Below, one piece after another: positions 1 through 17,339 of a DNA stretch of 31,719 bases. A program made the translations under genes and the position numbers. Source of the stretch: a virus (taxonomy: Duplodnaviria; Caudoviricetes); the IMG/VR virus record IMGVR_UViG_3300044675_005591, positions 1 through 31,719 of that record. One strand, written 5' to 3'. How positions within the stretch are numbered: position 1 is the stretch's first letter; each line of letters opens with the position of its first letter. The notes beneath the pieces were generated by a model. The model saw only the letters and a program-made list of their open reading frames with translations. It did not search any database and was not told the origin of the DNA.

Positions 1-63
1 GCCAGCGGGCTTAAAATCCGCTGCTCTGTGAAGGGCTTCCGGGTTCGAGTCCCGGCATCGGCA
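1..63 (+). tRNA. tRNA-Leu(TAA), 3' part (5' end lies outside the window); probable prophage attachment site
   Basis: Anticodon stem GCGGG/TCCGC with loop CTTAAAA (TAA at 12-14), long variable arm GCTCT-GTGA-AGGGC, T arm CCGGG-TTCGAGT-CCCGG, discriminator A63, no encoded CCA. It sits directly upstream of an integrase. Confidence 0.9.
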
Positions 64-174: not shown

Positions 175-204
175 TTGACGGAGTGTGACGTTGGGTGTTA
201 CAAA
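175..204 (+). promoter_or_regulatory. Possible sigma70-type promoter for the integrase
   Basis: TTGACG (175-180), 18 nt, TACAAA (199-204), just before the ATG at 212. Confidence 0.3.
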
Positions 205-211
205 GTGTGAC

Positions 212-1468
212 ATGAGCGACCGCAACGACTCTTCCCCTGCCCTTTCCTCTGCCGTGTCTTCGGGTTCTTTGGTGCCTTCGGGTGCTGCACAGGGCGTGAA
301 GGCGTCTCGGCCGGCTTCGCTGAAGCGACGCATTGCGGGGGTGAAGGTGCGGTTTTATAAGCGCACGGTGGCATCGAATCTGAGCATGGATTTTGAGCTG
401 GAGGGTGAGCGGTTTCAGGAGTCCACCGGGTGGCCGCACATCGCGGATGCGGAGCGGGTGGCGCTGCGGCGGATTGAGGAGATCAAGGCGGCGCGTTTTG
501 CGCTGGGGGCCGGTGCGCTGGTGCGTGGCTCGATGGCGACGGTGGGGGATGTTTGCGAGGCGGTGACGGGCGGGGATAAGGTGATGGAGGATCGGACGCG
601 GGCGCGGTATCTGGAAGCGTTGAAGCGGCTGGCGCGGGTGGTGGATGAGGCGCGGCCGGATGCGGTGGCGCTGGATGCGGTGCTGAATCGCGGGCTGCTG
701 GAGCGGTTTGTGAGTGTGGGACAAGGCCGCGATGGCCGAGGCGTGAATTGGCATGATGCGCTGCCGGGGAATGTGGGCCTAAATTCGACGCTGCGGAATG
801 CGGCGAGTGTGTTTCAGGAGCGGATTGTGGAGCGGCACCTGAAGGGGTTGCGGCTGCCTCCGCTGGATGCGCTGCGGAAGTTTCCGGCGCTGCCGACGCC
901 GCCGACGCATTTTGTGCCGTGGCCGACGGAGAATCTGGCGGCGATGGATGCGGCGGCGCTGGTGCTGAAGGTGGAAGAGCCGGAGCTTTACCTGTGCCAC
1001 ATCATGCTGCGTCGCCTCGGGCTGCGGGATGCGGAGCTGCTGACGGCGCGGGCGAGCTGGGTGCAGTGGAATGAGGCGGAGGGGAAGGCGTGGCTGGATG
1101 TGCGGCCTCGGGCTGCGGAGGGTGGCGAGCCGGGTTTCAGGCTGTTGAAGGGTGGCAGGCCGCGGCGTTTGGCGCTGGATGCGGAGATCCAGGGGCTGCT
1201 GAAGGGGCGCGCGGGGTTTTTGATCGGTGACGGCTGGACGGATTCACGCCGCTATGATTTCATTTATCGGGATCATTGCGAGTGGCTGCGGCCGTTTGTG
1301 CCGGCGGGGCGCTCGAAGGTGAACCATGAGCTGCGGAAGCTGAGCGCGAGTCGCGTTTATACGGCGCACGGCATCGCGGCGGCGGCGTATTTCCTGGGGG
1401 ATTCGGTGGCGACGACGGAGGGCTATTATGCGACCTGGACGGGCGAGGCTCCGGTGGTGGAGTGGTGA
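212..1468 (+). CDS. int: Phage integrase (tyrosine recombinase)
   Basis: Motifs GLRDAEL (R), HELRK (HxxR), YFLGDS...TTEGYY (Y); adjacent to a tRNA 3' end. ATG at 212 preferred over GTG at 185. Confidence 0.85.
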   Translation: MSDRNDSSPALSSAVSSGSLVPSGAAQGVKASRPASLKRRIAGVKVRFYKRTVASNLSMDFELEGERFQESTGWPHIADAERVALRRIEEIKAARFALGAGALVRGSMATVGDVCEAVTGGDKVMEDRTRARYLEALKRLARVVDEARPDAVALDAVLNRGLLERFVSVGQGRDGRGVNWHDALPGNVGLNSTLRNAASVFQERIVERHLKGLRLPPLDALRKFPALPTPPTHFVPWPTENLAAMDAAALVLKVEEPELYLCHIMLRRLGLRDAELLTARASWVQWNEAEGKAWLDVRPRAAEGGEPGFRLLKGGRPRRLALDAEIQGLLKGRAGFLIGDGWTDSRRYDFIYRDHCEWLRPFVPAGRSKVNHELRKLSASRVYTAHGIAAAAYFLGDSVATTEGYYATWTGEAPVVEW

Positions 1469-1534: not shown

Positions 1535-1589
1535 TTTCTGGTTTTGCCGGTGCTATCCAGAAATGTGTTCTGGATAATCTTTGTTCGCC
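1535..1589 (+). other. attI-like site, locus 1 (crossover G/TT at 1583)
   Basis: 1535-1585 aligns without gaps to the reverse complement of 15333-15383 at 35/51 positions (manual count), ending at GTT. It heads an attC array. Confidence 0.65.
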
Positions 1590-1933
1590 TGATAGGGATT
1601 TCGTCCGAACAGGCAGTCAGCAGCGACAACGGAGTTGCCATTCATCGAGGTCCACATGCCTTCTTTGGCAAGTATCTCGATGATGGGCCTACCGATGCAG
1701 ATCGGGATTCTGGCGGCGTCTCGTTCGCGTTCCAGTTTTCTGGCATGGATACTCAGCGACAGATAATGTTCTGACCATTCGGTGGCATCCTTTGGCATGT
1801 GATCCACTAGAGCGGCATCAGTCTCAGGCGTCTCCGAAACAGAAGAACAAGCCTGCTGGAGACAACCCCCTTGGGCGTCTTGATCTTCGATAGCGTCTAG
1901 CTCCGGCGTGGGTGCATTGGTATTCGTTGTCAT
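1553..1933 (-). CDS. Cassette ORF, phage-type hypothetical protein (TPETDA...ARKLERERD), 126 aa
   Basis: Starts inside attC 1842-1975 and ends inside the attI-like site; ATGA overlap with the upstream ORF. Confidence 0.7.
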   Translation of the reverse strand: MTTNTNAPTPELDAIEDQDAQGGCLQQACSSVSETPETDAALVDHMPKDATEWSEHYLSLSIHARKLERERDAARIPICIGRPIIEILAKEGMWTSMNGNSVVAADCLFGRNPYQANKDYPEHISG

Positions 1934-1975
1934 TTTGTGGTTAGGTCAGGGGTTGTCTCATCAGGGTCGTTCTGC
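1842..1975 (+). other. attC-like site A
   Basis: GAAGAAC...GCTG[G]AGACAACCCC // GGGGTTGTCTCATC-AGGGTC-GTTCTGC: paired arms, one unpaired G in the left L box, AAC/GTT ends. Confidence 0.8.
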
Positions 1976-2208
1976 GGATACATGAAACTCGGGTAGGCCG
2001 TTCCTATCAAATCTTCCACCCGACAATGCCACTCATCGAGTTCGTGAGATTTTGCCCATGCCTCCATGATCGGCTCAACCAGCACGAGGATTTCCAGCAT
2101 AGCCTTTTCTCGGCACGCGCAGGCGTGGTGGTGAGTTGCGCCAACTGCCGAACAAGGCGAGGCAGCGCAACCCTCAGGAGCGGGCAAGTTTGTTTTTGGA
2201 TCAGGCAT
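1930..2208 (-). CDS. Cassette ORF, hypothetical protein with THHHACACRE motif, 92 aa
   Basis: ATG at 2208 lies in the loop of attC B and overlaps the upstream stop (ATGCCTGA); stop lies in the loop of attC A. Confidence 0.65.
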   Translation of the reverse strand: MPDPKTNLPAPEGCAASPCSAVGATHHHACACREKAMLEILVLVEPIMEAWAKSHELDEWHCRVEDLIGTAYPSFMYPQNDPDETTPDLTTK

Positions 2209-2249
2209 CTGGGGCGCTCCTTTCGGGTTGCTGCTCTTTTGCGTTGAGG
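2147..2249 (+). other. attC-like site B
   Basis: GCCGAAC-AAGGC-GAG[G]CAGC-GCAACCC // GGGTT-GCTGCTC-TTTTGC-GTTGAGG. Confidence 0.8.
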
Positions 2250-2497
2250 TCACAAAACATCTGGCATTGGCAGTCGGGGCATTGGCAAAGCGTCGAGTCA
2301 TATTCGCGATTGCATTGGAGGCAGCGGCGCCGGAGTCCATGCTGTGGGAGCAGTGGCATGCCAAACATGAGCCGGAACCGATTTCCTGCATGCAGCTTTG
2401 AGAGTGCGCGGTGATTGGCCGCGCGCTGTTTCGGCGTGGGAATTGGAACAAGATCGCCGCATGGGGGCTGATCGTTGGCGTGCATGGAATTAGGCAT
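2201..2497 (-). CDS. Cassette-associated ORF with Cys-rich (zinc-ribbon-like) C-terminus, 98 aa
   Basis: CLQC...CPDC motif; reads through attC C and stops inside attC B. Confidence 0.55.
   Translation of the reverse strand: MPNSMHANDQPPCGDLVPIPTPKQRAANHRALSKLHAGNRFRLMFGMPLLPQHGLRRRCLQCNREYDSTLCQCPDCQCQMFCDLNAKEQQPERSAPDA
2372..2480 (+). other. attC-like site C (degenerate)
   Basis: CCGGAAC-CGATT-TCCT[G]CAT-GCAGC // GCCGC-ATGGGGG-CTGATC-GTTGGCG; more mismatches than the other sites. Confidence 0.55.
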
Positions 2498-3044
2498 TTG
2501 ATGGGACGGTGGAGAGGATCTCGGCCTCGATGACCGTGCTGCTTTGCTGTTCGAGGGCGGCGGCTTTGGCGGCGGCGGCTTTGGCGCGGGCCTCTGCTAA
2601 GCGATCCTGGGCGCTGATCGTGACGACGGCTTTGATTTCGGTGGGCATGCCGTTGAGGGAGCGCTCGATGTCGTGGGCGAGTTTGCTGCTCATGGAGACG
2701 GCCATGAGGTCGGACTTTTTGGCGTCGGGGATGAGCTCGGCCATTTTGCTGGTGCCCTGAAGGCGGGCGATGGCGGCGTTTTTGGCGGCGAGGTCGGCAA
2801 GCTGCTCGATGCTGAACTCGCTGCGCATGAGGGCGGCAATGGTTTGGCGGGATTTGTCGATTTCGAGGGTTTTGAGTTCGCGCTGGAGATCGGAGATGGA
2901 GGTGATGCCGTGCTGGGTGATCATCTCAATGCAGACGGCGTAGGAGTCGGGGTCGCTGGACTTCCAGTTTTTGGCGGTGTGTTCGCGCCAGGCGTCGATG
3001 GGACGCGGGGGGAGATCGGCGAGGGGGAGAGCGGGGGTGTCCAT
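2490..3044 (-). CDS. Hypothetical helical protein, possibly terminase small subunit-like, 184 aa
   Basis: HTH-like N-terminal region, helical middle, VIEAE-type tail. The TerS call is inference only. Confidence 0.6.
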   Translation of the reverse strand: MDTPALPLADLPPRPIDAWREHTAKNWKSSDPDSYAVCIEMITQHGITSISDLQRELKTLEIDKSRQTIAALMRSEFSIEQLADLAAKNAAIARLQGTSKMAELIPDAKKSDLMAVSMSSKLAHDIERSLNGMPTEIKAVVTISAQDRLAEARAKAAAAKAAALEQQSSTVIEAEILSTVPSNA

Positions 3045-3045
3045 G

Positions 3046-3117
3046 GGGAGACTGGGAGACTGGGAGACTGGGAGACTGGGAGACTGGGAGACTGGGAGAC
3101 TGGGAGACTGGGAGACT
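3046..3117. repeat. Perfect tandem repeat (GGGAGACT) x9
   Basis: Read directly; it ends 1 nt from the ATG (3044) of the 184-aa gene. Confidence 0.97.
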
Positions 3118-3145
3118 AGGCGGCGCGATGCAGTGCGGCGAAGGG

Positions 3146-3180
3146 GATGACTTTGTTGACTGCATTGACGTTGTTGACGG
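3146..3180. repeat. 9-bp periodic (T)TGAC repeat after the intI stop
   Basis: TGAC at 3148, 3157, 3166, 3175; related arrays at 6363-6392 and 6767-6805. Confidence 0.8.
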
Positions 3181-3188
3181 GGTAAGAA

Positions 3189-4211
3189 TTAGGCGGCGCG
3201 TTGATGAGGGGTGAAGGGCACGACGTTGGAGGCTGGCTGTGGCAGAGAGTCGAGGGGACTGCGGATTTCGCTGGCGAATTGGCGGATGCAGTGGGTGTAG
3301 AGCTCGGTGGTTTCGAGATGAGCATGGCCTAGCAGTTCTTTGAGCTTGTGGATGCTGCCGCCGTTTTCGAGGTAGGCGGTGGCGAAGCTGTGGCGGAGGG
3401 TGTGGACGGTGATGCGTTTGCCGATGCGGGCGCGCTGGGCGGCTTTTTTGAGGGCTTTGGCGAGGGTGTCTTCGTGGAGGTGATGACGGCGAATGATGCC
3501 GGTTTCGGGGTCGCGTGAGGGCTGGCGGCCGGGGAAGAGGAATTGCCAGGGCCAGTCTTCGCCATAGCGGGGGTATTTGCGGGCGATGGAGTCTGGCAAC
3601 CAGACGCCGGGGAGGTTTTGGCGGCGATCGGCTTGCCAGAGGGCTTCAAGACGCTGGAAACGGGCTTGAAGGACGGGGATGAGGCTGGCGGGTAGGCAGG
3701 TGGTGCGGTCTTTGTCGCCTTTGCCGCCGCGGACGGTAATGAGGCGGGCGCTGAGGTCGATGTCGCGGATGCGGAGGCGGAGGCCTTCGTTGAGGCGGAG
3801 GCCGCTGCCGAACATGATCTGGGCGATGAGAAGGCAGGGACCTTCGAGATGATGGGCGAGGGCTTGGAATTCGCTGCTGGAGAGCCAGACGGGGAGGCGC
3901 TGTTTTTGGGGTGGTTTGACCCATTCGGGCATTTGACCCAAGGGGGTGCCGAGGCCGTGCTTGTAGGCGAAGACGAGGGCGTTGAGGGCCTGCTGCTGGG
4001 TTTTGGGTGAGCAGCCGCCGGGGCGTGTGGCGAGATGGGCGAGGTAGCGGCTGACTTTGGTTTCTGAGTCGGCTGCATGAAGGCCGGGCTGACTGAGGAG
4101 CCACAGGGCGTAACGTCGTGCCCAGCCTGCGTAGCATTGCCACGTTTTGCGGGCTTTGTGGTCGCGTTTGGCGGCACAGATGACTTGCTCGATGAATTCG
4201 GAGGTTGTCAT
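3189..4211 (-). CDS. intI: Integron integrase
   Basis: Tyrosine recombinase motifs GLRLNE, GKGDKDR, HTLRHSFAT, LLGH and TTELYTH, plus the IntI-specific insertion PGVWLPDSIARKYP...WPWQFLFP...RHHLHE. Confidence 0.93.
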   Translation of the reverse strand: MTTSEFIEQVICAAKRDHKARKTWQCYAGWARRYALWLLSQPGLHAADSETKVSRYLAHLATRPGGCSPKTQQQALNALVFAYKHGLGTPLGQMPEWVKPPQKQRLPVWLSSSEFQALAHHLEGPCLLIAQIMFGSGLRLNEGLRLRIRDIDLSARLITVRGGKGDKDRTTCLPASLIPVLQARFQRLEALWQADRRQNLPGVWLPDSIARKYPRYGEDWPWQFLFPGRQPSRDPETGIIRRHHLHEDTLAKALKKAAQRARIGKRITVHTLRHSFATAYLENGGSIHKLKELLGHAHLETTELYTHCIRQFASEIRSPLDSLPQPASNVVPFTPHQRAA

Positions 4212-4218
4212 GATAACT

Positions 4219-4252
4219 CAGAATGGAGGTGGGGTTAATTCAACTGTTAGGC
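4219..4252 (+). other. attI site, locus 2 (core GTTAGGC at 4246-4252)
   Basis: Canonical GTTRRRY about 35 bp upstream of the intI start. 4219-4240 matches the locus 3 site at 17/22 positions. The core is the exact complement of the next attC's GCCTAAC. Confidence 0.8.
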
Positions 4253-4585
4253 AGAAGGCACCGTATGCGGTCCATATTTACGAAGCCGGGTGAGCGTTCG
4301 CTCCATGTTCTCAACGTCGCGCTCCAGTTGCTCGGCCCACATCTTGTTTTTGCGGGTCGTTCGTCCGAGCGCAACGTCGTGGTCCCCGAGCAAAGAGCGT
4401 GTGTGCTCAAGGCCAGCGTCGAGCGCGTGAATCGCGGCGTATATGTCATCCTTCTGAACCGTCCAGAGTTCGGGTTGGTATTCGGTAATCATAAAATTAA
4501 AAACTGAGCCTAACAAGGCGATGGAGACAAGCCGAGTGCTTGCCACGTTTTCATTCGCGGGAGGTTTTTGGTTCGTGGGAATCAT
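4247..4585 (-). CDS. Cassette ORF, hypothetical coiled-coil protein (112 aa; start may be the internal MITEYQ)
   Basis: The TAA stop is part of the core site; the annotated start lies inside attC 4508-4615. Confidence 0.7.
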   Translation of the reverse strand: MIPTNQKPPANENVASTRLVSIALLGSVFNFMITEYQPELWTVQKDDIYAAIHALDAGLEHTRSLLGDHDVALGRTTRKNKMWAEQLERDVENMERTLTRLRKYGPHTVPSA

Positions 4586-4615
4586 TGGTTCGGCTGTCTC
4601 ACCTTGTCGTTCAGG
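4508..4615 (+). other. attC site 1
   Basis: GCCTAAC-AAGGC-GATG[G]AGA-CA[A]GCCGA // TCGGCTG-TCTCACC-TTGTC-GTTCAGG: R''/L''/L'/R' geometry with two extrahelical bases. Confidence 0.88.
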
Positions 4616-4651
4616 GCACTCACGTTAGTCTTTCGGACTTCGTGAGCGCCC
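4614..4651 (-). terminator. Stem-loop downstream of the 103-aa cassette gene
   Basis: GGGCACTCACG..AGTC-TTTCG-GACT..CGTGAGCGCCC; no clear U tract. Confidence 0.4.
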
Positions 4652-4664
4652 GTCACAGGTGGCG

Positions 4665-4976
4665 TTACATTTTCAGTCCGTCAGCCGTCGGCTCGATCAC
4701 GAGCGATGTCGGGTCTTTGCTGTGCGGGTATGGATTCGGCGTGTTCTGCGCCTTGAGGTCCATGCCGAGCCACATGATTGCTTCCTCGATCTTGGTCACG
4801 GCGAGGCTGCGTTCACGCGATGAGCGCACGGGATGGTCTGGCGCACGTTCTCCGGTGTAGCCTTTGTCACTGCCTTGTTTGAGGCGTTGGAGGCATTCAT
4901 CGAGGTCTTTGCGCCATTGCTTCGTCTGGAAGACAAAGGCTTCTTGCTGGTCTGGGTTTGGTGTCGTGGTTTCCAT
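4665..4976 (-). CDS. Cassette ORF, Acb2/Tad1-like helical-hairpin protein (candidate anti-defence nucleotide sponge), 103 aa
   Basis: SSRERSLAVTKIEEAIMWL resembles the Tad1 (SSRENACALTHVEEALMW) and Acb2-family helix, as recalled from memory. Confidence 0.6.
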   Translation of the reverse strand: METTTPNPDQQEAFVFQTKQWRKDLDECLQRLKQGSDKGYTGERAPDHPVRSSRERSLAVTKIEEAIMWLGMDLKAQNTPNPYPHSKDPTSLVIEPTADGLKM

Positions 4977-5024
4977 GTTATCGTTGTCGTTTGGTTTCTA
5001 CTTCGGCAGTCTGGGGTGCCGTGC

Positions 5025-5117
5025 CCTGAACCATGCGCTGGTGGCAACGGCTCGAAATTTATCTGTCACGGTTGCGGGGCCTCAGTGCTCGCCGTCGCCA
5101 CAGCTTCGGCGTTCTGC
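5025..5117 (+). other. attC site 2
   Basis: CCTGAAC-CATGC-GCTG[G]TGG-CAACGGC // GCCGTCG-CCACAGC-TTCGGC-GTTCTGC. GTGCCCTGAAC (5021-5031) is the exact complement of the cassette start GTTCAGGGCAC (4609-4619). Confidence 0.88.
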
Positions 5118-5431
5118 TCACCGACTAGCGCGACGCACTTCGAGTGCAGCAAGGTGCCTCCAAAGCCCGCTGCCATGATTGGCACGTTTTTCACCACTGA
5201 GCGCAAGACAGATTCGCATTCGTGCAAGCGGCGAGTCATTGCGTCCGGTGGCACATAAAAGTTGTGGCTGCATCCGCCGCAGCACACATCAGCAGCGTGA
5301 CCGTCGTAAAGCCAGAGTTTGCCGCAGTTTGGACATTCAACGAACTGCTTGACCACGAAAGCGGAACCAGCGGATGCAGGCAACCCAGTGGGTCGGTTTG
5401 TCGGAGTTTGAGAGTCGGTTTCTTCGGTCAT
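5066..5431 (-). CDS. Cassette ORF, zinc-finger-like protein (CPNC...CGGC), 121 aa
   Basis: Starts in the loop of attC 3 and stops in the loop of attC 2. Confidence 0.7.
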   Translation of the reverse strand: MTEETDSQTPTNRPTGLPASAGSAFVVKQFVECPNCGKLWLYDGHAADVCCGGCSHNFYVPPDAMTRRLHECESVLRSVVKNVPIMAAGFGGTLLHSKCVALVGEQNAEAVATASTEAPQP

Positions 5432-5497
5432 GTATTTGAGGCTGGTGAGTGTCTTTCGTGGTTATGCCCCAGGGTTGCCTGATCCTGGTCGTTCACT
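5361..5497 (+). other. attC site 3
   Basis: GCGGAAC-CAGCG-GAT[G]CAGG-CAACCC // GGGTTG-CCTGATC-CTGGTC-GTTCACT. Confidence 0.87.
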
Positions 5498-5951
5498 TTT
5501 CGCCGAGGATGAGGTTGACGGTCTTGATGAACCATTTGGCGAGGGAGTTGTCGGCCTGGATGGCGGATTGGAGGCGGTGCCAGGCTTCTAAAACTGCGGC
5601 GGGGCTGGTGTCGATGTGGCCGGTGGTGTGGGCGGTGACGGCTTCGCGGAGGGTGCCGGGATCGGACTCGGCGATGGCGGCGATGGTGATCTCGAGGCGC
5701 GGGAGGTAGTCGGGCGGGCAGTCGTCGCGCAAATAGGCGATGAGCCAGCGGCGGGCGGTTTCGTCATCGACGGCGCGGAGGAGCTGGCCAAAGCGCTCGG
5801 GGCGCGGATGCTGGTCGCGGCGGATGCTGTCGATGGTGCCGCGTTTGAGGCCGGCGGTGTTTTCGAGGCTGAGGATGGTGCGCGTGGGGTTGCGCTGAAG
5901 GTAGTCTTCGAGTTGGACGGATAGATGGCTCATGCGTCCAGCTTGGTGCAT
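5493..5951 (-). CDS. XRE-type HTH protein, repressor-like
   Basis: N-terminal HTH-like segment TILSLENTAGLKRGTIDSIRRDQHPRPERFGQLLRAV. Its stop codon overlaps the last GTT core of the array. Confidence 0.65.
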   Translation of the reverse strand: MHQAGRMSHLSVQLEDYLQRNPTRTILSLENTAGLKRGTIDSIRRDQHPRPERFGQLLRAVDDETARRWLIAYLRDDCPPDYLPRLEITIAAIAESDPGTLREAVTAHTTGHIDTSPAAVLEAWHRLQSAIQADNSLAKWFIKTVNLILGEK

Positions 5952-5964
5952 TAAATCGTTGTTT

Positions 5965-6288
5965 TCAACAATTTTTTGATGCGGGAGGGTGTGCGGGCTT
6001 TTGAGTTTGGGCGCGGGGCTTTTTAGCTCCGGTGTGTGTGTGTGGAGGGGTTTGAGGCCGTGGATCCTCGGTGCTTTGGCTGGGGGCTGCGGCGGGGCTG
6101 GGAACGGCTAAAATGGCGGCCTGGAGGGCGTCGGCGAGGCTGAGGCGGTGGGCCTGGGCGTAGGCGAGGAGGTGGGCGTGGGCGGTGGCGCTGACGCGCG
6201 GGAGCGTGGTGCGGCGGGGCTGCTGGAGGGCGGGACGGCCGCGGCTGCGCTTGCGGGCGGTGGTTTTGGTGTTAGGCTGGGGGATCAT
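5965..6288 (-). CDS. Small DNA-binding protein (RGRP motif plus ribbon-helix-helix-like segment)
   Basis: From ATG 6288: RSRGRP...TTLPRVSATAHAHLLAYAQAHRLSLADALQAAI. Confidence 0.5.
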   Translation of the reverse strand: MIPQPNTKTTARKRSRGRPALQQPRRTTLPRVSATAHAHLLAYAQAHRLSLADALQAAILAVPSPAAAPSQSTEDPRPQTPPHTHTGAKKPRAQTQKPAHPPASKNC

Positions 6289-6320
6289 GGCGTTGGTGAA
6301 TGCTGGCGCTGTTTGTGATG

Positions 6321-6354
6321 AGCCCCCGGCGATTTGCGGTCGCCGGGGGCTTTG
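6321..6354. terminator. GC-rich hairpin, terminator-like
   Basis: AGCCCCCGGCGA-TTTGCGG-TCGCCGGGGGCT, a 12-bp perfect stem in an intergenic gap. Confidence 0.6.
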
Positions 6355-6362
6355 TGCGTTTG

Positions 6363-6392
6363 GGTGACGTTGTTGACCTGGTTGACGGGTTA
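6363..6392. repeat. 9-bp periodic GTTGAC repeat
   Basis: 25 bp (GGTGACGTTGTTGACCTGGTTGACG) identical to 6767-6791. Confidence 0.85.
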
Positions 6393-6644
6393 GGCGGCTT
6401 CGGTTTCGGTTTCGGTGGCCAACAGGCTGATGGTGTCGCCTTCGTGGAGCTGGCACTCGCCTTCCAAGATGACCCAGCCGCCGCGCAGGTTGCCGCCTGT
6501 TGAGCGGCCGATGCCTGTGCAGCGTTGGCCGAGTTGGCCGAGGTCGAAATCTTCGACAGTGTGGTCGTCTGGGCCGGACCATTCCAGGTGGGCGGTTTTG
6601 ATGCCGTGGTTGTCTTCAATGCGGGTGATGGTGGCGGTGGTCAT
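6390..6644 (-). CDS. Hypothetical protein, 84 aa
   Basis: Compact ORF between a promoter-like repeat and a 3' repeat/hairpin. Confidence 0.6.
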   Translation of the reverse strand: MTTATITRIEDNHGIKTAHLEWSGPDDHTVEDFDLGQLGQRCTGIGRSTGGNLRGGWVILEGECQLHEGDTISLLATETETEAA

Positions 6645-6650
6645 GGCGGT

Positions 6651-6742
6651 GTTTGTGAGGTGGTGGTTGCGTTTGCGGTGCAGTGCTCGGGATGAGCATG
6701 TGGGAGCTTAATGCGTGATTTGTTGCGTGCAATAATTATTTG
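6651..6742 (-). promoter_or_regulatory. Duplicated leftward promoter/leader, copy 1
   Basis: Minus strand TTGCAC-N16-TAAGCT followed by a TGCTC..GAGCA hairpin; closely similar to 8163-8261. Confidence 0.6.
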
Positions 6743-6766
6743 TTGAAATGTTTAACGGTGACGGAC

Positions 6767-6805
6767 GGTGACGTTGTTGACCTGGTTGACGTTGTTGACG
6801 GGTTA
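6767..6805. repeat. 9-bp periodic GTTGAC repeat
   Basis: TGAC at 6769, 6778, 6787, 6796, directly after the TAA of 6803-7210. Confidence 0.85.
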
Positions 6806-7210
6806 AAGATCCCAATGAATGCCGCGCGTGCCGTAGTAGGAGGTCGCAGCGGCTTCGCCTTCTTTGTGGGCTGTGGCGTTTCCGCACGGGGTGCAGACGC
6901 CATAACCGGTGTCTCTGTTCCACCATTGGCGGCCTTTGGTGCGCTGACCGCAGCAACAACAACTGAGGTTGCGCGCTGGGCGAACGGGGGCCGCGCTTTG
7001 ACGGCGGAAGATGGTCGCGAGATCGGGCAGGAGGTAATCGCCGCTAGGCTGTAAGCGCGGGCGGTGGGCAAGGCCGCGACTGCGGGCGGCGCGCAGAAGA
7101 TAAGCAACGCGGGCACGCGGCACATCGTGTGCGCGCTGCTCGCTGTAATAAACGAGGCTGAATGCGGCTTTGATGCGGACGGGCTGGGCAGGTGTTTGGG
7201 GAATGGACAT
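6803..7210 (-). CDS. Hypothetical protein with Cys motif (CCCCG...GRQWWNRDTGYGVCTPC), 135 aa
   Basis: ORF track; likely metal-binding C-terminal domain. Confidence 0.65.
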   Translation of the reverse strand: MSIPQTPAQPVRIKAAFSLVYYSEQRAHDVPRARVAYLLRAARSRGLAHRPRLQPSGDYLLPDLATIFRRQSAAPVRPARNLSCCCCGQRTKGRQWWNRDTGYGVCTPCGNATAHKEGEAAATSYYGTRGIHWDL

Positions 7211-7268
7211 GGGATGATGAGCGGTAAAAGTTTGCCCGCGTGTGGGATGCGCGGCCCCCGTGTGGGGT

Positions 7269-8153
7269 TTAGGCTTTGAGTTTCTTCATCTCTTCGGCCA
7301 AGGCCCAGAGGGCGCGGTTGACGGTGGTGTTTTGGTCGATGCCGCCGATCTCGCGTGTCTGGCGGCGTGCCACACGGCGGCCTTTGTCGTCGCGCTGGAC
7401 GTAGCGGAGGCCGCCGCGAATGAGGCTTTCTTGCACGGTGTTCAGCGTGTTCCAAATGGTCGGCGCGGCGTCTTCATGGCGGCGAAGGGTAAGCACCTGG
7501 TCTGGAGTGACAGGAGCGGCTTTGTCTTCGTAGCGTGCGACGAGTGCGGCGGTGGCAAAGGCGCGTTGCTCGCCTGCGGTGAGCTGCATGCTGGCCATGC
7601 TGCGGACGCTTTCATTGACTTCGGGGAGCTTTTCCATGAGGGACACGCATCCGTCGATCACCTGGCCGGTGACATCGCCCTTGTGAGGGACGCGGATGTC
7701 TTCGATCATGTTTTGTGCGACGACGAGGCCGTTGCCGCAGACGAGGCGGAAGATGCCTGCCATGAGGCGATAAGAGCTGGTGCCGTCGTGCGAATTGAGC
7801 AGGACGATCTCGTTGTGATTGCCGCCGACTTCGAGTTTTTGGCTGTCGTGGCGGAGGCGAATCAGATGCTTGGTGAAGCCGCGCTTTTCTTCGTCGCGAG
7901 AGCCGCCTTGCATGACGGCGTAAGGGCGGAAGCCTTCGCGCATGAGGCTGGTGAGGACTTCGCTGGTGGGGATGTAGCTATAAACGGCGGAGCGGCTGCT
8001 GTGGGCCTGCTCGGCGAAGATGCTGGGGGCGATGCTGCGGAGCTGGTCGAGATCCAAAGGCTGGCGGGAGGTGTAATTGACCGCGCCGTTGCTGCGGGTG
8101 TGGGTGCGAGCGAAACGGGAGATGTGGGAGGAGTAGGAGCCGAGGATGTTCAT
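7269..8153 (-). CDS. DUF932 (DUF945) family protein
   Basis: Motifs APSIFA..AHSSRS..YSYIPT, FTKHLIRLRH, LLNSHDGTSSYRLMAGIFRLVCGNG; start at ATG 8153. Confidence 0.85.
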   Translation of the reverse strand: MNILGSYSSHISRFARTHTRSNGAVNYTSRQPLDLDQLRSIAPSIFAEQAHSSRSAVYSYIPTSEVLTSLMREGFRPYAVMQGGSRDEEKRGFTKHLIRLRHDSQKLEVGGNHNEIVLLNSHDGTSSYRLMAGIFRLVCGNGLVVAQNMIEDIRVPHKGDVTGQVIDGCVSLMEKLPEVNESVRSMASMQLTAGEQRAFATAALVARYEDKAAPVTPDQVLTLRRHEDAAPTIWNTLNTVQESLIRGGLRYVQRDDKGRRVARRQTREIGGIDQNTTVNRALWALAEEMKKLKA

Positions 8154-8162
8154 GATGATGCT

Positions 8163-8261
8163 GTTTGTGATGTGGTTTGAAGTTCGCGTTTGCGGCGCGG
8201 TGCTCGGTGATGAGCACGTGGGGAGATTAATGCGGGAATTGTTGCGTGCAAGTATTAATTG
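8163..8261 (-). promoter_or_regulatory. Duplicated leftward promoter/leader, copy 2 (divergent control region)
   Basis: Minus strand TTGCAC-N16-TAATCT, then hairpin GTGCTC-ATCACC-GAGCAC; AT-rich. Confidence 0.6.
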
Positions 8262-8342
8262 CAGGAAAATGTTGTTTGCGTCTTTTTGGTTGACTATGGG
8301 GTAACCTGTGTAATTCTTCGGCGTATCCGTTTTCTCAACGCT

Positions 8343-8546
8343 ATGCCGAACGACGACACTCCGCCCCCGACGCCGCCCGATTTGATCGTGCTGGAAGCCC
8401 TCAAGGAGACCTGCGAGCAGGTGCGCCGCCACAATAGCAATCCGGAGGTGGCGAAGGCTGCGCTCCAATGGGAGACGCGCTTTGCCGCGAGCATGAAGAA
8501 GCACGAAACGGGAGGCGCTGGCCGCGAGGTGGCGACGACGGCGTGA
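8343..8546 (+). CDS. Hypothetical protein, first gene of the rightward operon
   Basis: ATG 8343; stop overlaps the next GTG. Confidence 0.55.
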   Translation: MPNDDTPPPTPPDLIVLEALKETCEQVRRHNSNPEVAKAALQWETRFAASMKKHETGGAGREVATTA

Positions 8547-8740
8547 TTTCGGATCTGCAACAACGCATTTCCGCCGCTCTGCGCAAGGGCAAGCGGCAGG
8601 TCGAGGCCACGGGCGCGGGAGCGCTGGGGAGTGCTTCCCGCGCCCCGGTGGCCCGGGCTTACGAGGTCCGGGAGTCGTGCGGTAATGTGCGGCGCTCTTT
8701 TTTGCTGTGGCATCCCCTTAAACAAGGAGGTCGGCCATGA
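8543..8740 (+). CDS. Hypothetical protein
   Basis: GTGA and ATGA couplings at both ends. Confidence 0.5.
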   Translation: MISDLQQRISAALRKGKRQVEATGAGALGSASRAPVARAYEVRESCGNVRRSFLLWHPLKQGGRP

Positions 8741-8910
8741 TCGCGGCGGCTTTTTTTGTGCTGACTCTCCTGGTGATCTGGCTGGGCGCAGCGGCGGTGG
8801 CGGCTCTGGCGCTGCCTGAGCGCGATTGGCGCGCGGAGGATTTCGAGCTTCGCGAATACGCGCAGTGGAAGCGGGAACGTGAGGGCCGCGGCGATGCCGA
8901 CGGCAAGTGA
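8737..8910 (+). CDS. Small membrane protein, 57 aa (below the ORF-track cut-off)
   Basis: AAGGAGG RBS; MIAAAFFVLTLLVIWLGAAAVAALAL hydrophobic N-terminus. Confidence 0.6.
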   Translation: MIAAAFFVLTLLVIWLGAAAVAALALPERDWRAEDFELREYAQWKREREGRGDADGK

Positions 8911-8944
8911 TCGGGCGCGCCTTTTCTTTTTTTTGACTCTTACC

Positions 8945-9337
8945 ATGTCGAAGCGGGCTTTCTCCACTCCTACGGCTGCGGCGGTGCTCCAGAACGGGCG
9001 CTGGTCGGCCGCTGAGGTGGCGACGCTGCTCGATGTGCCGGTGTCGCTGGTGGAGCGCTGGGCGCAGACCGGCCTGGTGCCGGGGTGCTCAGTGGTGGCA
9101 GGCCGCTGGATGCTGCCAGGGCGCTCTCTTTTTCTTTTTTTGGGCCGACGCATTGAGCCACACTATTCTGTCGAGACAGTGGCGACGCTGTTGGATCGGC
9201 CGGTGAAGACGGTGCGCGGATGGTTGCGGCTGGGTCGGCTGTCGAGCGTGAAGCTCGGGCTGGCGCGGTCATCGGCTTGCCTGGTGCCGGAAAGCGCGGT
9301 GATCAGACTGCTGCGCGGGGAAGGAGGTGCGGCATGA
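8945..9337 (+). CDS. Tandem excisionase/MerR-type HTH protein
   Basis: Two repeats: WSAAEVATLLDVPVSLVERWAQTG and YSVETVATLLDRPVKTVRGWLRLG. Confidence 0.75.
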   Translation: MSKRAFSTPTAAAVLQNGRWSAAEVATLLDVPVSLVERWAQTGLVPGCSVVAGRWMLPGRSLFLFLGRRIEPHYSVETVATLLDRPVKTVRGWLRLGRLSSVKLGLARSSACLVPESAVIRLLRGEGGAA

Positions 9338-10011
9338 CTGCGTCACAAAATGTGGTGCAATCCGGCGCGCTCAATGTGTGTGTGGCTGAGGCTGCGCTGG
9401 CCGGTCCGGATGCCGGGATGGATTGTGTGGCGGGGGAAGTTTCGGCAATGGGCGCGGCGGTCGCGACGGTGGCCGCTGGGCCGGATCGGGTGCCTGGCGC
9501 GGCTGCTGTGACGGCGTCAGCGGATGCGGAATCCGCTGTGCGTTTCGGTTTTACCTGCGTAAATGCGGCCTTGACTGCGCCATGTCACACTTCTTGCCAC
9601 ACTTCGACCGGGCAGAAGGCCGACCTGGGCGGCGCGGTCTCGGTGGTTTTGAACGAGGGGGGGCGGGGGTCGGTCGCGACGACGGCCGGCGTCCCTATAA
9701 TCGGATTCGAGGTCACAGAAAATTTTGTCAATGTCCATGCCGCCGCGTTCACCGATGCAGGCCAGTTGCTGGCGCGCGAGATCCGCACCGGAGCCATCGT
9801 GCTGGTGCAGGTAGCGGCTGGGCTGGATTGCTCGACGCTTGCGCTTCCGGCTGTTTTGGCCTGCCGCAAAAAAAAGGGCGGCGCGCTGGTGTTTGAAGGA
9901 CCGGTGCCGGAGTGGAAATGCCCGCAGTGCTGGCTTGCCCAGCCGCGCGATTGCATGGAGCAGCCTTGTGGCTGGCAGGACAAACCCAAAAAAAAGGGGG
10001 GCGCGGCATGA
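9334..10011 (+). CDS. Hypothetical protein with Cys-rich C-terminus
   Basis: GGAGG RBS, ATGA couplings at both ends; N-terminal half is low complexity. Confidence 0.5.
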   Translation: MTASQNVVQSGALNVCVAEAALAGPDAGMDCVAGEVSAMGAAVATVAAGPDRVPGAAAVTASADAESAVRFGFTCVNAALTAPCHTSCHTSTGQKADLGGAVSVVLNEGGRGSVATTAGVPIIGFEVTENFVNVHAAAFTDAGQLLAREIRTGAIVLVQVAAGLDCSTLALPAVLACRKKKGGALVFEGPVPEWKCPQCWLAQPRDCMEQPCGWQDKPKKKGGAA

Positions 10012-10310
10012 GCACGGCCACCGTCAGCCTTTGGGACACCGCACCGGCCACCGCGGCCGTGCGTGAGCGTCCCGTGCACGAGCTGCTGCACCAGCGCTCC
10101 AAGCTGGACGAATGGAGCGAGCAGATCCGCGTCATCCGCGATTTGCTGCCCGATCCCGATGTGAGCCCAACCGAGCGCTTGGCGCTCAGCATGGAGCTCG
10201 CCGTCGCCAAATGCGGCGCGCTGGCTTGTGCCAACGCCATAACCGCCTGCGAGGAGCGCATGCGCCAGCAGCACGCCCGCATGCAGCGCACCCATGGTCA
10301 TTTGCTTTGA
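10008..10310 (+). CDS. Hypothetical protein
   Basis: ATGA-coupled start. Confidence 0.55.
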   Translation: MSTATVSLWDTAPATAAVRERPVHELLHQRSKLDEWSEQIRVIRDLLPDPDVSPTERLALSMELAVAKCGALACANAITACEERMRQQHARMQRTHGHLL

Positions 10311-10319
10311 ATTTTCCCC

Positions 10320-10595
10320 ATGAACGACAACGACTCCCCAACTGACTCCTCACCGCCTGAGTTCACCATTCAGGTGCTCCGGCACAAACCGAATGCGCAG
10401 ACCCGCGTGCTTGAGCCTTGGCCCATGGCCACGATCAACATCACGCAGGCAGGCACCGTCTGCTTCTCTGGCGATGCCAGCAAAAGCTACGGCCCCATGC
10501 AGCAAGCCTTTGAGGCCACCGTCACCGCCTTTGCCCAGGCCGCGGCCAAGATCATCGAGCGGCAAATCATTGTCAAAGCCGACAAAACTCTATGA
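10320..10595 (+). CDS. Hypothetical protein, 91 aa
   Basis: ORF track; operon position. Confidence 0.6.
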   Translation: MNDNDSPTDSSPPEFTIQVLRHKPNAQTRVLEPWPMATINITQAGTVCFSGDASKSYGPMQQAFEATVTAFAQAAAKIIERQIIVKADKTL

Positions 10596-10906
10596 GCTAT
10601 GAAACTCACCGCCTGGGTGCGCGAATCCGCCGCCAATCTCCGCGTCAAGCCGACCACGCTCTGGCGCACCCTGTATCGGCAACGGCTCCCGTGGCCGGCC
10701 ATGATCAAAAAAAACCGGCGCGTGTTCGACGTGCTGGATCCGCCGCTGTTCCCGTCGTGCGTGCCATCTGGCGTGATGCCACGGGCACGCGCGTCCGCCT
10801 CACCTACGTCACCCGCGGCACCGTCGATTACCAAAACCTCGACACCGGCGGCCATGGCGTCATGAGCCGCGCTTGGCTCGAGAAACACTTCACTCCCCTG
10901 CCCTGA
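10592..10906 (+). CDS. Hypothetical protein (competes with the overlapping ORF 10599-10865)
   Basis: Coupled at both ends; frame ambiguous. Confidence 0.4.
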   Translation: MSYETHRLGARIRRQSPRQADHALAHPVSATAPVAGHDQKKPARVRRAGSAAVPVVRAIWRDATGTRVRLTYVTRGTVDYQNLDTGGHGVMSRAWLEKHFTPLP

Positions 10907-12890: not shown

Positions 12891-12894
12891 GTGA
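11887..12894 (+). CDS. Overlapping alternate-frame polypeptide with motif IX-like segment (putative methyltransferase beta subunit)
   Basis: 335 open codons, four W/L-P/Q-T-P/V repeats and LNPTWVEWLMGWPLGWTD; ATG 8 nt after AAGGAGG. Confidence 0.6.
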   Translation: MSWLFSRALVVAFSEGSSWDGAACALWSGMPMPQACLWHGKTMDAWSRFPSGMTCAPLTEVHGEAVLTWFLAGFPARTFPALAKERASMGSEVGCGWRWPGSSVRWDRDTCSWRTRQCSLFGGLEQFSGTWPRWGMMRSGECWELMMPELHTDGNESGSWDGEETWQTPTAQDANGRTHHNQRDGSKRASLLGQVAMWPTVRSSDGERGGRGDLIQAVRGNPNRHYKLWQTPVADDAVDRKTGKWNSRGEAKLSAQVKMLPTPTVQDASNNGGPAQMERNALPLNAVAGGALNPTWVEWLMGWPLGWTDCGASATDKFRQWCGSHGKPLTKSTHE

Positions 12895-14551: not shown

Positions 14552-14587
14552 TTCACCCACAACCCACACACCACACCGACACCCACC

Positions 14588-14992
14588 ATGCCCAACAAAC
14601 TCAACGCCTACATTGACCCCGCCAAGCTGCAAGGAGCGCATCTGATGCAGATCAAAGACCGCGCTGGCACGCCGCAGGAATGCCTTGTCATCGTGCTCAA
14701 GGACTCGCGCATCCGTCGCTCCGAGAAATCGGGCAAGCTCGGCCTTTCCATTGACATCGTGCCCAACAAGGACGGCAAAGACGAGTATGGAAACACGCAC
14801 TGGATCAAAGAAAGCACCACCAAAGCCGAGCGCGAAAGCCCGCAGCCTCCCAATCTGCACTTCCTCGGCAATGCCCGTGAGTTTGAACTTGGTGGCCAGC
14901 GCACCGCCCGCCCCGCCGCAGGCTCGCCCGTGACCGGCGGCAGCGAGGCACCCATGGCCGACGGCATGGAGGACGATGACATCCCGTTTTGA
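14588..14992 (+). CDS. Single-stranded DNA-binding-like protein
   Basis: Acidic tail EDDDIPF; follows the helicase. Confidence 0.65.
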   Translation: MPNKLNAYIDPAKLQGAHLMQIKDRAGTPQECLVIVLKDSRIRRSEKSGKLGLSIDIVPNKDGKDEYGNTHWIKESTTKAERESPQPPNLHFLGNAREFELGGQRTARPAAGSPVTGGSEAPMADGMEDDDIPF

Positions 14993-15010
14993 ACTGTGAA
15001 GGGAAATGCA

Positions 15011-15104
15011 CGCCAACCGTCGAAAATCAGGCGACGGCGAGCGCCAAGCCTGATTTGCACGACAGATGATCTTCGAGCCGCGGCCTGCATTTTCTTTGTT
15101 CAGC
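15011..15104 (-). other. attC-like site, locus 3
   Basis: Minus strand GCTGAAC-AAAGA-AAAT[G]CAGG-CCGCGGC // GCCGTCG-CCTGATTT-TCGACG-GTTGGCG; shares CGGCTCGAA..ATCTGTC and GCTCGCCGTCGCC with attC 2. Confidence 0.78.
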
Positions 15105-15135
15105 ATCAAAGTCCAAACATCAACCTTATCACATT

Positions 15136-15333
15136 ATGACCCCCGAAAACTTTTGTTATTGGCTGCAAGGCTTGTTTGAGGTGCAAAACCCCCGAGCACT
15201 GACCGAAGCACAAACCGCCGTGGTGAAGGAACACCTTCAAACGGTATTCAATAAACGCACAAAGAAGACCGTCGAGCGCACTGAATCGCTCCCGGCTCAG
15301 TCGCCTCCAACGCGGGGTGGCCGCATATGCTGA
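15136..15333 (+). CDS. Cassette ORF, phage-type hypothetical protein (MTPENFCYWLQG...), 65 aa
   Basis: Flanked by GTTCAGCAT (15098-15106) and ATGCTGAAC (15327-15335); its stop is part of the core site. Confidence 0.75.
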   Translation: MTPENFCYWLQGLFEVQNPRALTEAQTAVVKEHLQTVFNKRTKKTVERTESLPAQSPPTRGGRIC

Positions 15334-15383
15334 ACGGTAATTATTCCAACCACCATTCCGCATAATACCCGCAAAACCGGAAA
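15329..15383 (-). other. attI-like site, locus 3
   Basis: Minus strand TTTCCGGTTTTGCGGGTATTATGCGGAATGGTGGTTGGAATAATTACC-GTTCAGC; similar to both other attI-like sites. Confidence 0.7.
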
Positions 15384-15398
15384 CATCCCCATTACCCC

Positions 15399-17339
15399 AT
15401 GATCTCACCCGACACCCAGCTTGTCATTGAAGCTCTGCATGCAGGGCAAGAGGCGCATCCGGTGATTGAGCCGTTGGCGCTGGATGAGTTGCTGGTGCTG
15501 GGCGAGGAAGGCGCGGCGGAGGCGGTGGCGGCGCGGGCGGATGCGATTCGCGAGATGGCGGAGCAACCGCTGGATCAGGGCTGGGTGCCGCAGGATTGGT
15601 GGCTGTTCTTGTTGGAGCTGTGCCGGAAGCGTCTGGAGCATCCAGGGCGCGTTCTGGAGGTGCTGGTGAGCGGAGGGATTCGTGCGGGCAAAACGCATGT
15701 GGCGGCCTCGCTGGCGGTGCAGCATTGGAAGCATGCGCAGAAGGCCACGGTGTTCTGCATGAGCCGTCGCGAGGAGGACTCGCAAAACCTTCAGCAGAAG
15801 CCCATCGAGTCCTTTCTGCCGCCCGAGGCGCTGGGCGGTGCGGCGGGCAAGATCAAGCAGGACAAGCACCAGAAGGCGAAGTTCAGCGGCGGCAAGTTCA
15901 CCGACAACCAGTTCAGCCGTTACCTCATCGTCACCGGGGCCAATGGCGAGCGCTACACTGGCGGCGGCATGGTGCAGTTTCGTTTCTTCACGCAGGAACT
16001 GGAGAGCTTCCGGGGCTACGCGCTCACGTTTGTGTGGTCCGATGAAGGCATTCCCGTCGATCACGTCAAAGCGCTGAAGGATCGTCTCGCGTCGCGAGCC
16101 ATCGAAACGCAGCGCGATGAGCATCGGAAGCAAATGCTGGCGCTGCAAAGCTACCTCGTGCCGCTCGCGGATGGCGTGCCCGGTGCCAAACGGCCGCATG
16201 GCGAGCTGCTCGGGGCGCTCATGCACGGCGTGCATCTCATCACCTACACGCCCGAGGAAGGCTTTACGCCGACGGTGCGCTACTTCATGCAGGGCGCGGT
16301 GAAGCCCGACAAGTTCAAGGTCATTGCCCCCGAGCTGGCGGCGAAGGGCGGCTGCAAAGATCCGCGTGTGCCCAAGATCGCGTATCCGCTGGAGCCGACC
16401 CGGTTGGTTTGTTACCTGCACACCGCCGCGAACAAATACGTCAACGTCTATCCCCAGCTCTCCAAGGACTACGCTGGAGCCGATGAGAAGACCGTCCGCA
16501 TCAAGCTCTACGGCGACGCCGAGGCCGCCAGCCGCAGCGAGTTCGAGGCCGTGTGGAAACCGGAGCAGCACCTGTGCGATTGGAAAGACCTGCCTCGCGA
16601 TGGCACGCTCTACGAGATCATCGACGGCGCGGAGGCCAAGCCGTTTTTCATCGGCTGGTTCATCGTCGATCCGATGGGGCGGTTCTGGCAGGCGCAGGAA
16701 TGGCCGTGTGAAAGCATTGCGATCGACGACATGATGCCCGGCCCGTGGGCTGTGATGAGCGAAAAGGACCGCATGAATGGCGACGAAGGCCCGGCGCAAA
16801 AGCTGCGTCTCGGCTGGAACTTCGAGCAGTATGCCGAGCTGGTGTGGCAGATGCGGCATCGCCTGCTGGAGAAGATGAAGGAAACCGGCGGCGAGTGGCA
16901 GGGCCGCACCGTGCAGCATCCCGTGAAAAGCGGCGATGCCATCCTGTGCGCCGAGCCGTTCGAGACGTATGGCGATCCGCGTTGGAGCCAGTGGAAGAGC
17001 GGAGCCACCGGAGCGACCATCCAGCAGGAGTTCTACGACCTGCCCAATGGCTTCACCATCCTCGTGCCCGAAGGTGTGCGCGTGCAGGAAGGGCTCGCCC
17101 TCGTGCGCGATGCCTTCGCCACCACCATCCTCATGCAGCCCAAAGCCCGCGTGAACCGCGAATGCACCAACACCATTTTTGGTTTGCAGAATTTCACGAT
17201 CCCCGACTACGCCGAGCAGACCAAACGCAAAGACGAAGCCTGCAAAGACCCCGTGGACGTGTGGCGCTACTTCTGCCTCGCCGGGCCGGAGCATGTGCCG
17301 CCCGCGGGTTTGGAGATCGTCAGGGGCGGGAGTTATTGA
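15399..17339 (+). CDS. Terminase large subunit
   Basis: Walker A SGGIRAGKT, Walker B FVWSDE, C-terminal nuclease-type acidic residues (IIDGAE, KDPVDVWRY); precedes the portal. Confidence 0.82.
   Translation: MISPDTQLVIEALHAGQEAHPVIEPLALDELLVLGEEGAAEAVAARADAIREMAEQPLDQGWVPQDWWLFLLELCRKRLEHPGRVLEVLVSGGIRAGKTHVAASLAVQHWKHAQKATVFCMSRREEDSQNLQQKPIESFLPPEALGGAAGKIKQDKHQKAKFSGGKFTDNQFSRYLIVTGANGERYTGGGMVQFRFFTQELESFRGYALTFVWSDEGIPVDHVKALKDRLASRAIETQRDEHRKQMLALQSYLVPLADGVPGAKRPHGELLGALMHGVHLITYTPEEGFTPTVRYFMQGAVKPDKFKVIAPELAAKGGCKDPRVPKIAYPLEPTRLVCYLHTAANKYVNVYPQLSKDYAGADEKTVRIKLYGDAEAASRSEFEAVWKPEQHLCDWKDLPRDGTLYEIIDGAEAKPFFIGWFIVDPMGRFWQAQEWPCESIAIDDMMPGPWAVMSEKDRMNGDEGPAQKLRLGWNFEQYAELVWQMRHRLLEKMKETGGEWQGRTVQHPVKSGDAILCAEPFETYGDPRWSQWKSGATGATIQQEFYDLPNGFTILVPEGVRVQEGLALVRDAFATTILMQPKARVNRECTNTIFGLQNFTIPDYAEQTKRKDEACKDPVDVWRYFCLAGPEHVPPAGLEIVRGGSY

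Follow-up and report, generated by a model that had tools for sequence, protein, structure and literature searches.

The analyzed stretch of DNA, referred to below as the window, comprises positions 1-31,719 of IMG/VR virus record IMGVR_UViG_3300044675_005591 (31.7 kb; Caudoviricetes). Family searches identified genes for a large terminase (terL), capsid, DnaB, and amidase, among others, and three short cassette arrays, each headed by an attI-type site, lie between phage genes (Table 1). A complete twin genome of 40,022 bp, G001, is 99.9% identical to the window across the 14.2 kb compared. The window sequence occurs in lake-water metagenomes, with no RNA data set listed among them. In a species-genome collection, no relative of terL was found and relatives of the integron integrase were 34 to 43% identical.

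The left end of the window is occupied by the 3' part of a tRNA gene, the only Rfam family detected in the window and likely the phage attachment core. Of 401 genomes from one phylum, 12 gave a match to this piece, with no more than 76 to 85% identity, and in a further comparison one of three matched weakly; in G001, phage-like DNA continues upstream of it. The adjacent gene is a probable phage integrase gene (int), judging from a weak family match and its position. The terS-like protein had no Pfam, NCBIfam, or PHROG match and received no useful name from the Atlas. Its homologs (54 to 57%) lie directly before terL in five contigs, all more distant relatives, and its position suggests that it is probably a small terminase displaced from terL. 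In the window, the gene is found 12 kb from terL on the opposite strand, within a leftward operon. Approximately 10 copies of an 8-nt tandem repeat (3038-3120) separate it from intI, and this repeat is shorter in relatives and lake contigs. The gene upstream of array 3 is presumably SSB-like. Elsewhere in the window, a C5 methyltransferase gene (11883-12890) is skipped (11880 to 12885) in three of four lake runs and absent in contig L004, with no attC boundaries, and the early region contains a direct repeat of about 110 bp (6650-6752 and 8162-8273, 80% identical).

Table 1 Features of the window that bear on the three cassette arrays
Feature	Position	Strand	Basis or remark
tRNA 3' part, anticodon TAA, Leu-like	1..63	+	Rfam tRNA match, truncated at the 5' end, scoring under the gathering threshold
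Probable phage integrase, convergent on array 1	185..1468	+	Weak phrog_216 match, E 0.032; beside tRNA piece
attI site 1, class A, orphan; crossover G1583/T1584	1535..1589	+	Near-identical left half, then three different sequences in relatives
Cassette A	1584..1969	+	attC 1842-1975; ORF 1933-1553 on minus strand
Cassette B	1970..2243	+	attC 2147-2249; minus-strand ORF
Frozen last cassette, decayed attC	2244..2474	+	attC candidate 2372-2480; present in G001, G002, G003, L040, L065
Array 1 right flank, shared 12-mer	2474..2485	+	Minus strand reads ATG plus three codons
Probable small terminase (terS-like)	2490..3044	-	Assigned from position
Integron integrase IntI-B, intact	3189..4211	-	TIGR02249, 325.9 bits (cutoff 265)
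attI site 2, class B, overlaps intI start; crossover G4246/T4247	4198..4252	+	Three different first cassettes in relatives, another in run X8
Cassette D	4247..4609	+	attC 4508-4615; minus-strand ORF starts inside attC
Cassette E	4610..5111	+	attC 5025-5117; ORF 4976-4665
Cassette F	5112..5491	+	attC 5361-5497; cluster 33; in array 3 in other strains
Phage gene; stop codon is right half of site 2	5493..5951	-	Sequence; no family match
SSB-like gene upstream of array 3	14588..14992	+	Acidic C-terminus; PHROG matches of unknown function only
Array 3 right flank, 23 nt	14995..15017	+	Ribosome-site-like purines, ATG, 12-mer; starts 15-aa leader into attC
Cassette G, 318 bp	15017..15334	-	attC 15104-15011; ORF 15136-15333 on plus strand
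attI site 3, class A, orphan; crossover G15335/T15334	15329..15383	-	attI here in 26/29 close terL contigs
Large terminase (terL)	15399..17339	+	phrog_2, E 1.7e-8; starts about where intI-A starts in complete modules

Three attI sites of two classes

A first-pass annotation of the sequence had aligned the heads of the three arrays, and its alignments were reproduced exactly. Positions 1535-1585 (+) and 15383-15333 (-) agree without gaps at 35 of 51 positions and both end in GTT (33/49 when the final TT is left out), compared to 29 and 28 for the next-best 51-mers in the window. Similarly, 4219-4240 matches site 3 (15360-15339) at 17 of 22 positions, the next-best match being 14. The former lies 5 nt before its own GTT and the latter 3 nt before, so that the match is shifted by 2 nt relative to the GTT. 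When 21 sites are aligned, the shift is seen to reflect a two-column insertion beside the core in sites of the site 2 type, and the alignment separates class A sites, with 4 nt between AAT and the crossover GTT, from class B sites, with 6 nt. Sites 1 and 3 belong to class A, while site 2, beside IntI-B, belongs to class B. An attI profile scan of the window gave matches only at the array heads, and the same type of scan found no fourth attI in the rest of G001, where one attC-like match was rejected as apparently lying inside a long gene. In addition, a 9-bp inverted repeat (1554-1576) within the left half of site 1, without a counterpart at site 3, faces the end of int and could act as a terminator. 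A class A-like site in a relative (L087, 6500-6530) has an additional G ahead of the core and may represent a third spacer length.

The window encodes an IntI-family tyrosine recombinase, IntI-B, in which R139, K167, H270, R273, H296, and Y305, which we take to be the catalytic residues, are invariant. In relatives, class A sites are found beside a sister integrase, IntI-A, that is about 50% identical to IntI-B. A tree of 32 IntI proteins, of which 12 are linked to class A sites, three to class B sites, and 14 come from bacterial genome contigs, reflects the two classes: all 12 class A-linked integrases form one group (support of 93/97, just under the strict threshold of the tool), and all three class B-linked integrases form its sister group (100/100). 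Their joint clade (98/94) excludes the 14 integrases from bacterial contigs. Both the window and G001, whose single intI product is 51% identical to IntI-A, encode IntI-B only, leaving one integrase for three sites.

Sites 1 and 3 thus differ in class from the site adjoining IntI-B by spacer, profile, alignment, and tree. On a class B profile, site 3 scores -0.7 and site 1 is not among the top matches listed, with profiles that include the window's own sites. As sites 1 and 3 are of the IntI-A-linked class, their service in trans by IntI-B appears doubtful at attI and likely at attC. This is consistent with published accounts in which attC sites are recombined by several integrases and attI sites are cognate-specific (PMC2095811; PMC8946536), and in which cross recombination between a noncognate attI and IntI is described as "generally inefficient" (PMC8946536); IntI1 is nevertheless described as excising cassettes at truncated attI2 sites (PMC12901181). 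Site 1 has changed neighbors in IntI-B strains, which suggests that IntI-B may serve class A sites. Two of its three neighbors form clean G/TT junctions in IntI-B-linked strains, one of which has its IntI-B deleted. We consider efficient service of class A attI by IntI-B less likely than not.

Cassettes and their exchange among relatives

The three arrays contain seven attC candidates (Table 1), with R''/L''/L'/R' boxes and an extrahelical base. They were found with a pattern scan of our own rather than a covariance model, which yielded 12 candidates in the window versus 1 to 9 in shuffled sequences. The arms pair in the predicted fold for five of the seven, the exceptions being those at 2372 and 15011, and the fold z-scores are weak. 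Given the limited specificity of the scan and these z-scores, the weight rests on comparison with relatives. Since the 2372-2480 hairpin does not fold arm to arm, array 1 ends in a decayed attC at best. Arrays 1 and 3 have no adjacent intI; the former lies about 0.7 kb from the 3' end of the gene.

Across the phage loci examined (up to L095), 175 cassette units were delineated, representing 70 distinct sequences in 59 clusters; a few of these units could be two cassettes run together. Complementarity between R'' and the start of the cassette extends over all four positions in 45 of the 59 clusters. Cassettes are gained or lost as units at G/TT. Left halves that match site 1 at 46 or more of 49 positions are followed by three different sequences, and the same number follows left halves like site 2, which lies at the 5' end of intI and combines a fixed left half with variable DNA after G/TT. 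For left halves like site 3, the first cassette is the same in 13/13 contigs and the second position varies, as expected if attC is used and the attI of site 3 is idle; array contents at this locus are of 11 distinct kinds among the close terL contigs. Individual cassettes also occur in other contexts. Cassette F, last in array 2 here, is second in array 3 in L009, L011, L012, L021, and G003; a homolog of cassette B (cluster 22) is the first cassette in the IntI-A array of L085; and cassette A is also found behind another attC-like arm in run X17.

Lake contigs from six runs, none flagged as a possible source of the window, branch at 1583, 4248, 5111, 5490-5493, and 15015-15018. Branching at 1583 occurs in 4/4 runs, and the joints 5111-15018 and 5493-15014 correspond to cassette F in array 3. 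These counts do not represent independent events, as the same strain may have been sampled more than once, in contigs of separate origin, and cassettes held in common can give rise to chimeric assemblies. Together, the switching at G/TT among relatives and lake contigs bears out the initial proposal that the three sites are of the attI type and homologous.

Several rearrangements deviate from this pattern. A joint from 1922 to 5139 with a 4-nt overlap (runs X16 to X18) links a point within the first attC to the interior of cassette F and is not at GTT. In the G002 1:9478 region (L048) and in 4/4 lake runs, the site 1 left half is followed by G/GT instead of G/TT, an imprecise or mutated junction. 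In L040 (11529-12377), the array 1 cassettes of G002 follow a different class A attI, with a portal-like gene in the place of int, which represents either reassortment at the array or a chimeric contig. Further attI loci are located downstream of terL: a fourth locus in L020 (7457-8405) and, in G005, one before the portal gene (L086, 13618-14336).

The cassette genes are oriented backwards. Of the 59 clusters, 54 have their longest ATG-initiated ORF on the bottom strand (21 to 35 in 50 shuffles), instead of pointing away from intI to be read from Pc, and 46 of these 54 reversed genes start inside their own attC. Because the flanking phage genes point the same way, transcripts would come into each array at its far end, and reading of the cassette genes would proceed from the phage operon upstream, across the array, to attI. 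A consensus scan found no plus-strand promoter-like site near site 2. The scan returned three sites, compared to 1.0 +/- 1.1 by chance, and no weight is placed on it; one of these, 4238-4210 (-), lies inside site 2 and points into intI. Among the cargo, the cassette E ORF (4665-4976, minus strand) has a match to an Acb2/Tad1 hairpin domain (PF24729, E 1.5e-6, above cutoff). The protein had no sequence match in the PDB, and the gene is a candidate for anti-defense cargo.

Origin of the orphan sites and of the shared 12-mer

How two class A sites came to stand in a genome with IntI-B only is best approached through the locus before terL. In G004, a class A attI, intI-A, and terL follow in a row. 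Directly before terL in 29 close contigs, a class A site is found in 20, a class B site in six, a class A site with intI-A in two, and the contig end in one; in five more distant terL contigs, the terS-like gene takes the place of attI. In L019, L020, L022, and L027, the terL ATG occupies the position of the intI ATG in complete modules, an ATG-to-ATG swap, and the class A sites directly before terL in L019 and L027 are almost identical to the intI-A-linked site of L042. In addition, 38 aa of IntI-A survive as a remnant behind one class A site in G002, and intI-B is internally deleted in G003. These remnants and the contigs in which terL begins at the intI start document the loss of intI from a whole module as a route, one by which sites 1 and 3 themselves would have arisen. 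We therefore regard it as reasonably probable that the three attI sites head three short arrays of which those at sites 1 and 3 belong to orphans of class A attI-intI modules that have lost intI, with site 2 keeping the sole integrase. A whole class A module would have shed intI, its attI staying behind. Since attC sites are open to several integrases according to the literature, IntI-B could shuffle cassettes in all three arrays, and would do so mainly via attC. Insertion at the class A sites themselves would require IntI-A from a coinfecting relative, a recombinational swap of the locus, or a weak cross-reaction.

The first-pass annotation had offered a different origin. While its homologous attI sites and its single integrase for three sites have stood, its view of sites 1 and 3 as two copies of one empty attI, comprising left half and 12-mer, that was duplicated to both loci, diverged, and is served in trans by IntI-B is not supported, and we consider it unlikely. 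The idea draws on homologous left halves next to an identical 12-mer, on the single integrase of the complete genome G001, and on the varied first cassettes of site 1. It is also in keeping with G005, in which three class A sites accompany one intI-A and two of the sites are identical at 50 of 51 positions; left-half duplication does therefore occur in the lineage, and G005 fits the idea better than the window does. However, sites 1 and 3 have identical right halves but agree at just 33 of 49 positions in the left half, where site 1 shows greater similarity to the sites of other phages (42/49 to L067 at the same locus and 40/49 to L017 before terL). The integrase of the window is moreover of the other class. 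In the locus 1 arrays of L067 and L070, the 12-mer is missing and the end of the terS-like gene serves as the right half, and L042 retains only a remnant of the left half. The presence of the left half in relatives without the 12-mer (L067 and L042) indicates separate histories for the two, and at locus 1 the former appears to predate the latter.

The empty joins that such a duplication implies were not recovered either. Six empty or inverted junctions derived from the window were absent from 109 loci at up to three mismatches, a degenerate-pattern scan of viral contigs returned one match in an unrelated-looking contig, and no such joint was among the 15 of 22 lake-contig joints listed (six runs). 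As contigs drop rare variants, this absence falls short of proof. The sole empty site found lies at locus 3 in L020 and L059 and joins a class B left half to the locus 3 flank; thus, neither an empty class A allele nor a single history of both halves was found.

The 12-mer itself was reported correctly: it is identical at 2474-2485 (+) and 15017-15006 (-), at the far array ends, and the match does not extend beyond. The window contains many repeated 12-mers, 16 of them starting with GTT, but the two copies of this one mark the ends of arrays. When cassette starts from relatives were compared in 1,596 pairs, just two pairs shared at least 11 letters from TT, and both look like homologous cassettes. 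At locus 3, the 23-nt flank follows the SSB-like stop codon and opens a leader of 5 to 24 aa into the last attC. Most close relatives keep the flank with one or two letters changed, but L029/L036 and L031 lack it; in L031 and L036, the stop-codon region itself forms the right half. At locus 1, the 12-mer supplies the ATG of a cysteine-rich ORF of 94 aa in the last cassette, with homologs that vary at the N- and C-terminal ends, as would be the case for cassette genes starting inside attC. Treating 2244-2474 as a plain phage gene, with array 1 ending at 2243, was set aside; the homologs change at cassette-junction positions, and a truncated one is part of the L036 array. Another protein, P0006, is identical to the ORF of the window as far as the R''-like box (2372-2378) in the 2372-2480 hairpin, where its sequence changes, as though one cassette body had been exchanged for another. 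The best fit is probably that the 12-mer, a start-codon leader native to locus 3, was copied to locus 1 with the last cassette and 12 to 13 nt of flank, after which the attC decayed; none of the relatives shows an intermediate.

A more improbable scenario is that arrays 1 and 2 were once a single array, from int to the gene at 5493-5951, that was split by a block containing the terS-like gene, intI, and attI. Recombination between arrays 1 and 3, whose attI sites are inverted relative to each other, could then invert 13.8 kb, rejoin the terS-like gene to terL as in the more distant relatives, and explain the 12-mer. In G005, one array apparently spans the whole interval between int and the 5493-5951 homolog, running over the ends of the record, L040 has the G002 array 1 with another left flank, and cassettes bounded by attI have been described (PMC12901181). 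Against this, the inverted junction was found in none of the 109 loci nor among the 15 of 22 joints listed, L040 may be a chimeric assembly, and relatives in which the terS-like gene is already beside int lack the 12-mer, which argues that the 12-mer did not travel with that gene. The array split is compatible with the loss of intI from modules, and the inversion is the unsupported part. Finally, it is highly improbable that sites 1 and 3 are secondary, attG-like insertion points that resemble each other by chance or through a shared promoter; IntI can reportedly insert cassettes outside att sites (bioRxiv 10.1101/2022.09.11.507474), and the right halves of the sites are phage gene ends, but the same 49-nt left half stands directly before an intact intI-A in many relatives and the profile matches only array heads in the window, so that class A sites adjoining IntI-A largely refute this reading.

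Relation to known integrons

As far as described for the canonical integron (Cury et al. 2016, PMC4889954; Nivina et al. 2016, PMC5027507), the system shares the IntI family, an attI at the 5' end of intI, the G/TT crossover, the extra base on the R''-side arm of attC, and an R'' complementary to the cassette start. Unlike that type, the genes here face attI, and a genome holds several attI sites. The AAT-to-GTT spacer of 4 nt (class A) or 6 nt (class B) compares to 5 nt in the attI2 core as given in PMC12901181. The site 2 locus is thus an integron except for its gene orientation, and sites 1 and 3 are orphan platforms.

Without an adjacent intI, arrays 1 and 3 resemble CALIN, SALIN, and attG elements as outlined by Cury et al. 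(2016) and Loot et al. (bioRxiv 10.1101/2022.09.11.507474). A CALIN comprises two or more attC sites in the absence of a nearby intI; here, array 1 lies close to intI, array 3 contains a single attC, and both carry an attI. Each keeps a full attI left half, which marks them as orphan platforms and not as stray cassettes. In class 1 and 2 integrons, Delta-attI-type cassettes likewise provide extra attI-derived sites per element and possible cross-class use; according to their description (PMC12901181), however, these are truncated cores replacing attC inside an array, in contrast to the full left halves that head separate arrays here.

Integrons in phages are known, with three complete integrons, one In0, and 17 CALINs reported in 10,705 genomes, including a Shewanella prophage with two attI sites (PMC9892861). 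This prophage, M16-3, is similar in having more than one attI per phage genome, one integrase, and arrays near packaging genes. As presented in that report, M16-3 is a cryptic prophage with an integrase 95% identical to that of its host and the same attI sequence for both arrays. The system described here differs in its phage-contig integrase clade, the mixture of two attI classes, its occurrence as a lineage-wide trait with varying content, and its reversed cassette genes. In the mostly open-access literature searched, we found no account of a phage lineage with two to four attI loci per genome and two integrase-matched classes in one genome.

A broader picture, which we put forward tentatively and consider less likely than not to hold in full, is that of a networked integron. 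Portable attI-intI modules at operon joints, two to four per genome, would shed their integrase and stay as pads served by the resident enzyme or by coinfecting relatives. The two classes, with their 2-nt spacer difference, would be natural orthogonal integrase-site pairs, and the arrays may act as crossover points that reassort genome modules between phages.

In the usual view, an integron is one platform with one attI and its cognate integrase, and phages carry only infrequent fragments of host origin. In the lineage described here, by contrast, integrons serve as permanent sites of variable content at several operon joints, and a candidate anti-defense gene is among their cargo. The two attI classes, which have sister integrases and are mixed in one genome, offer a direct test of whether attI cognacy lies in spacer length or in sequence, and the mixed classes also allow a test of whether orphan platforms are served in trans.
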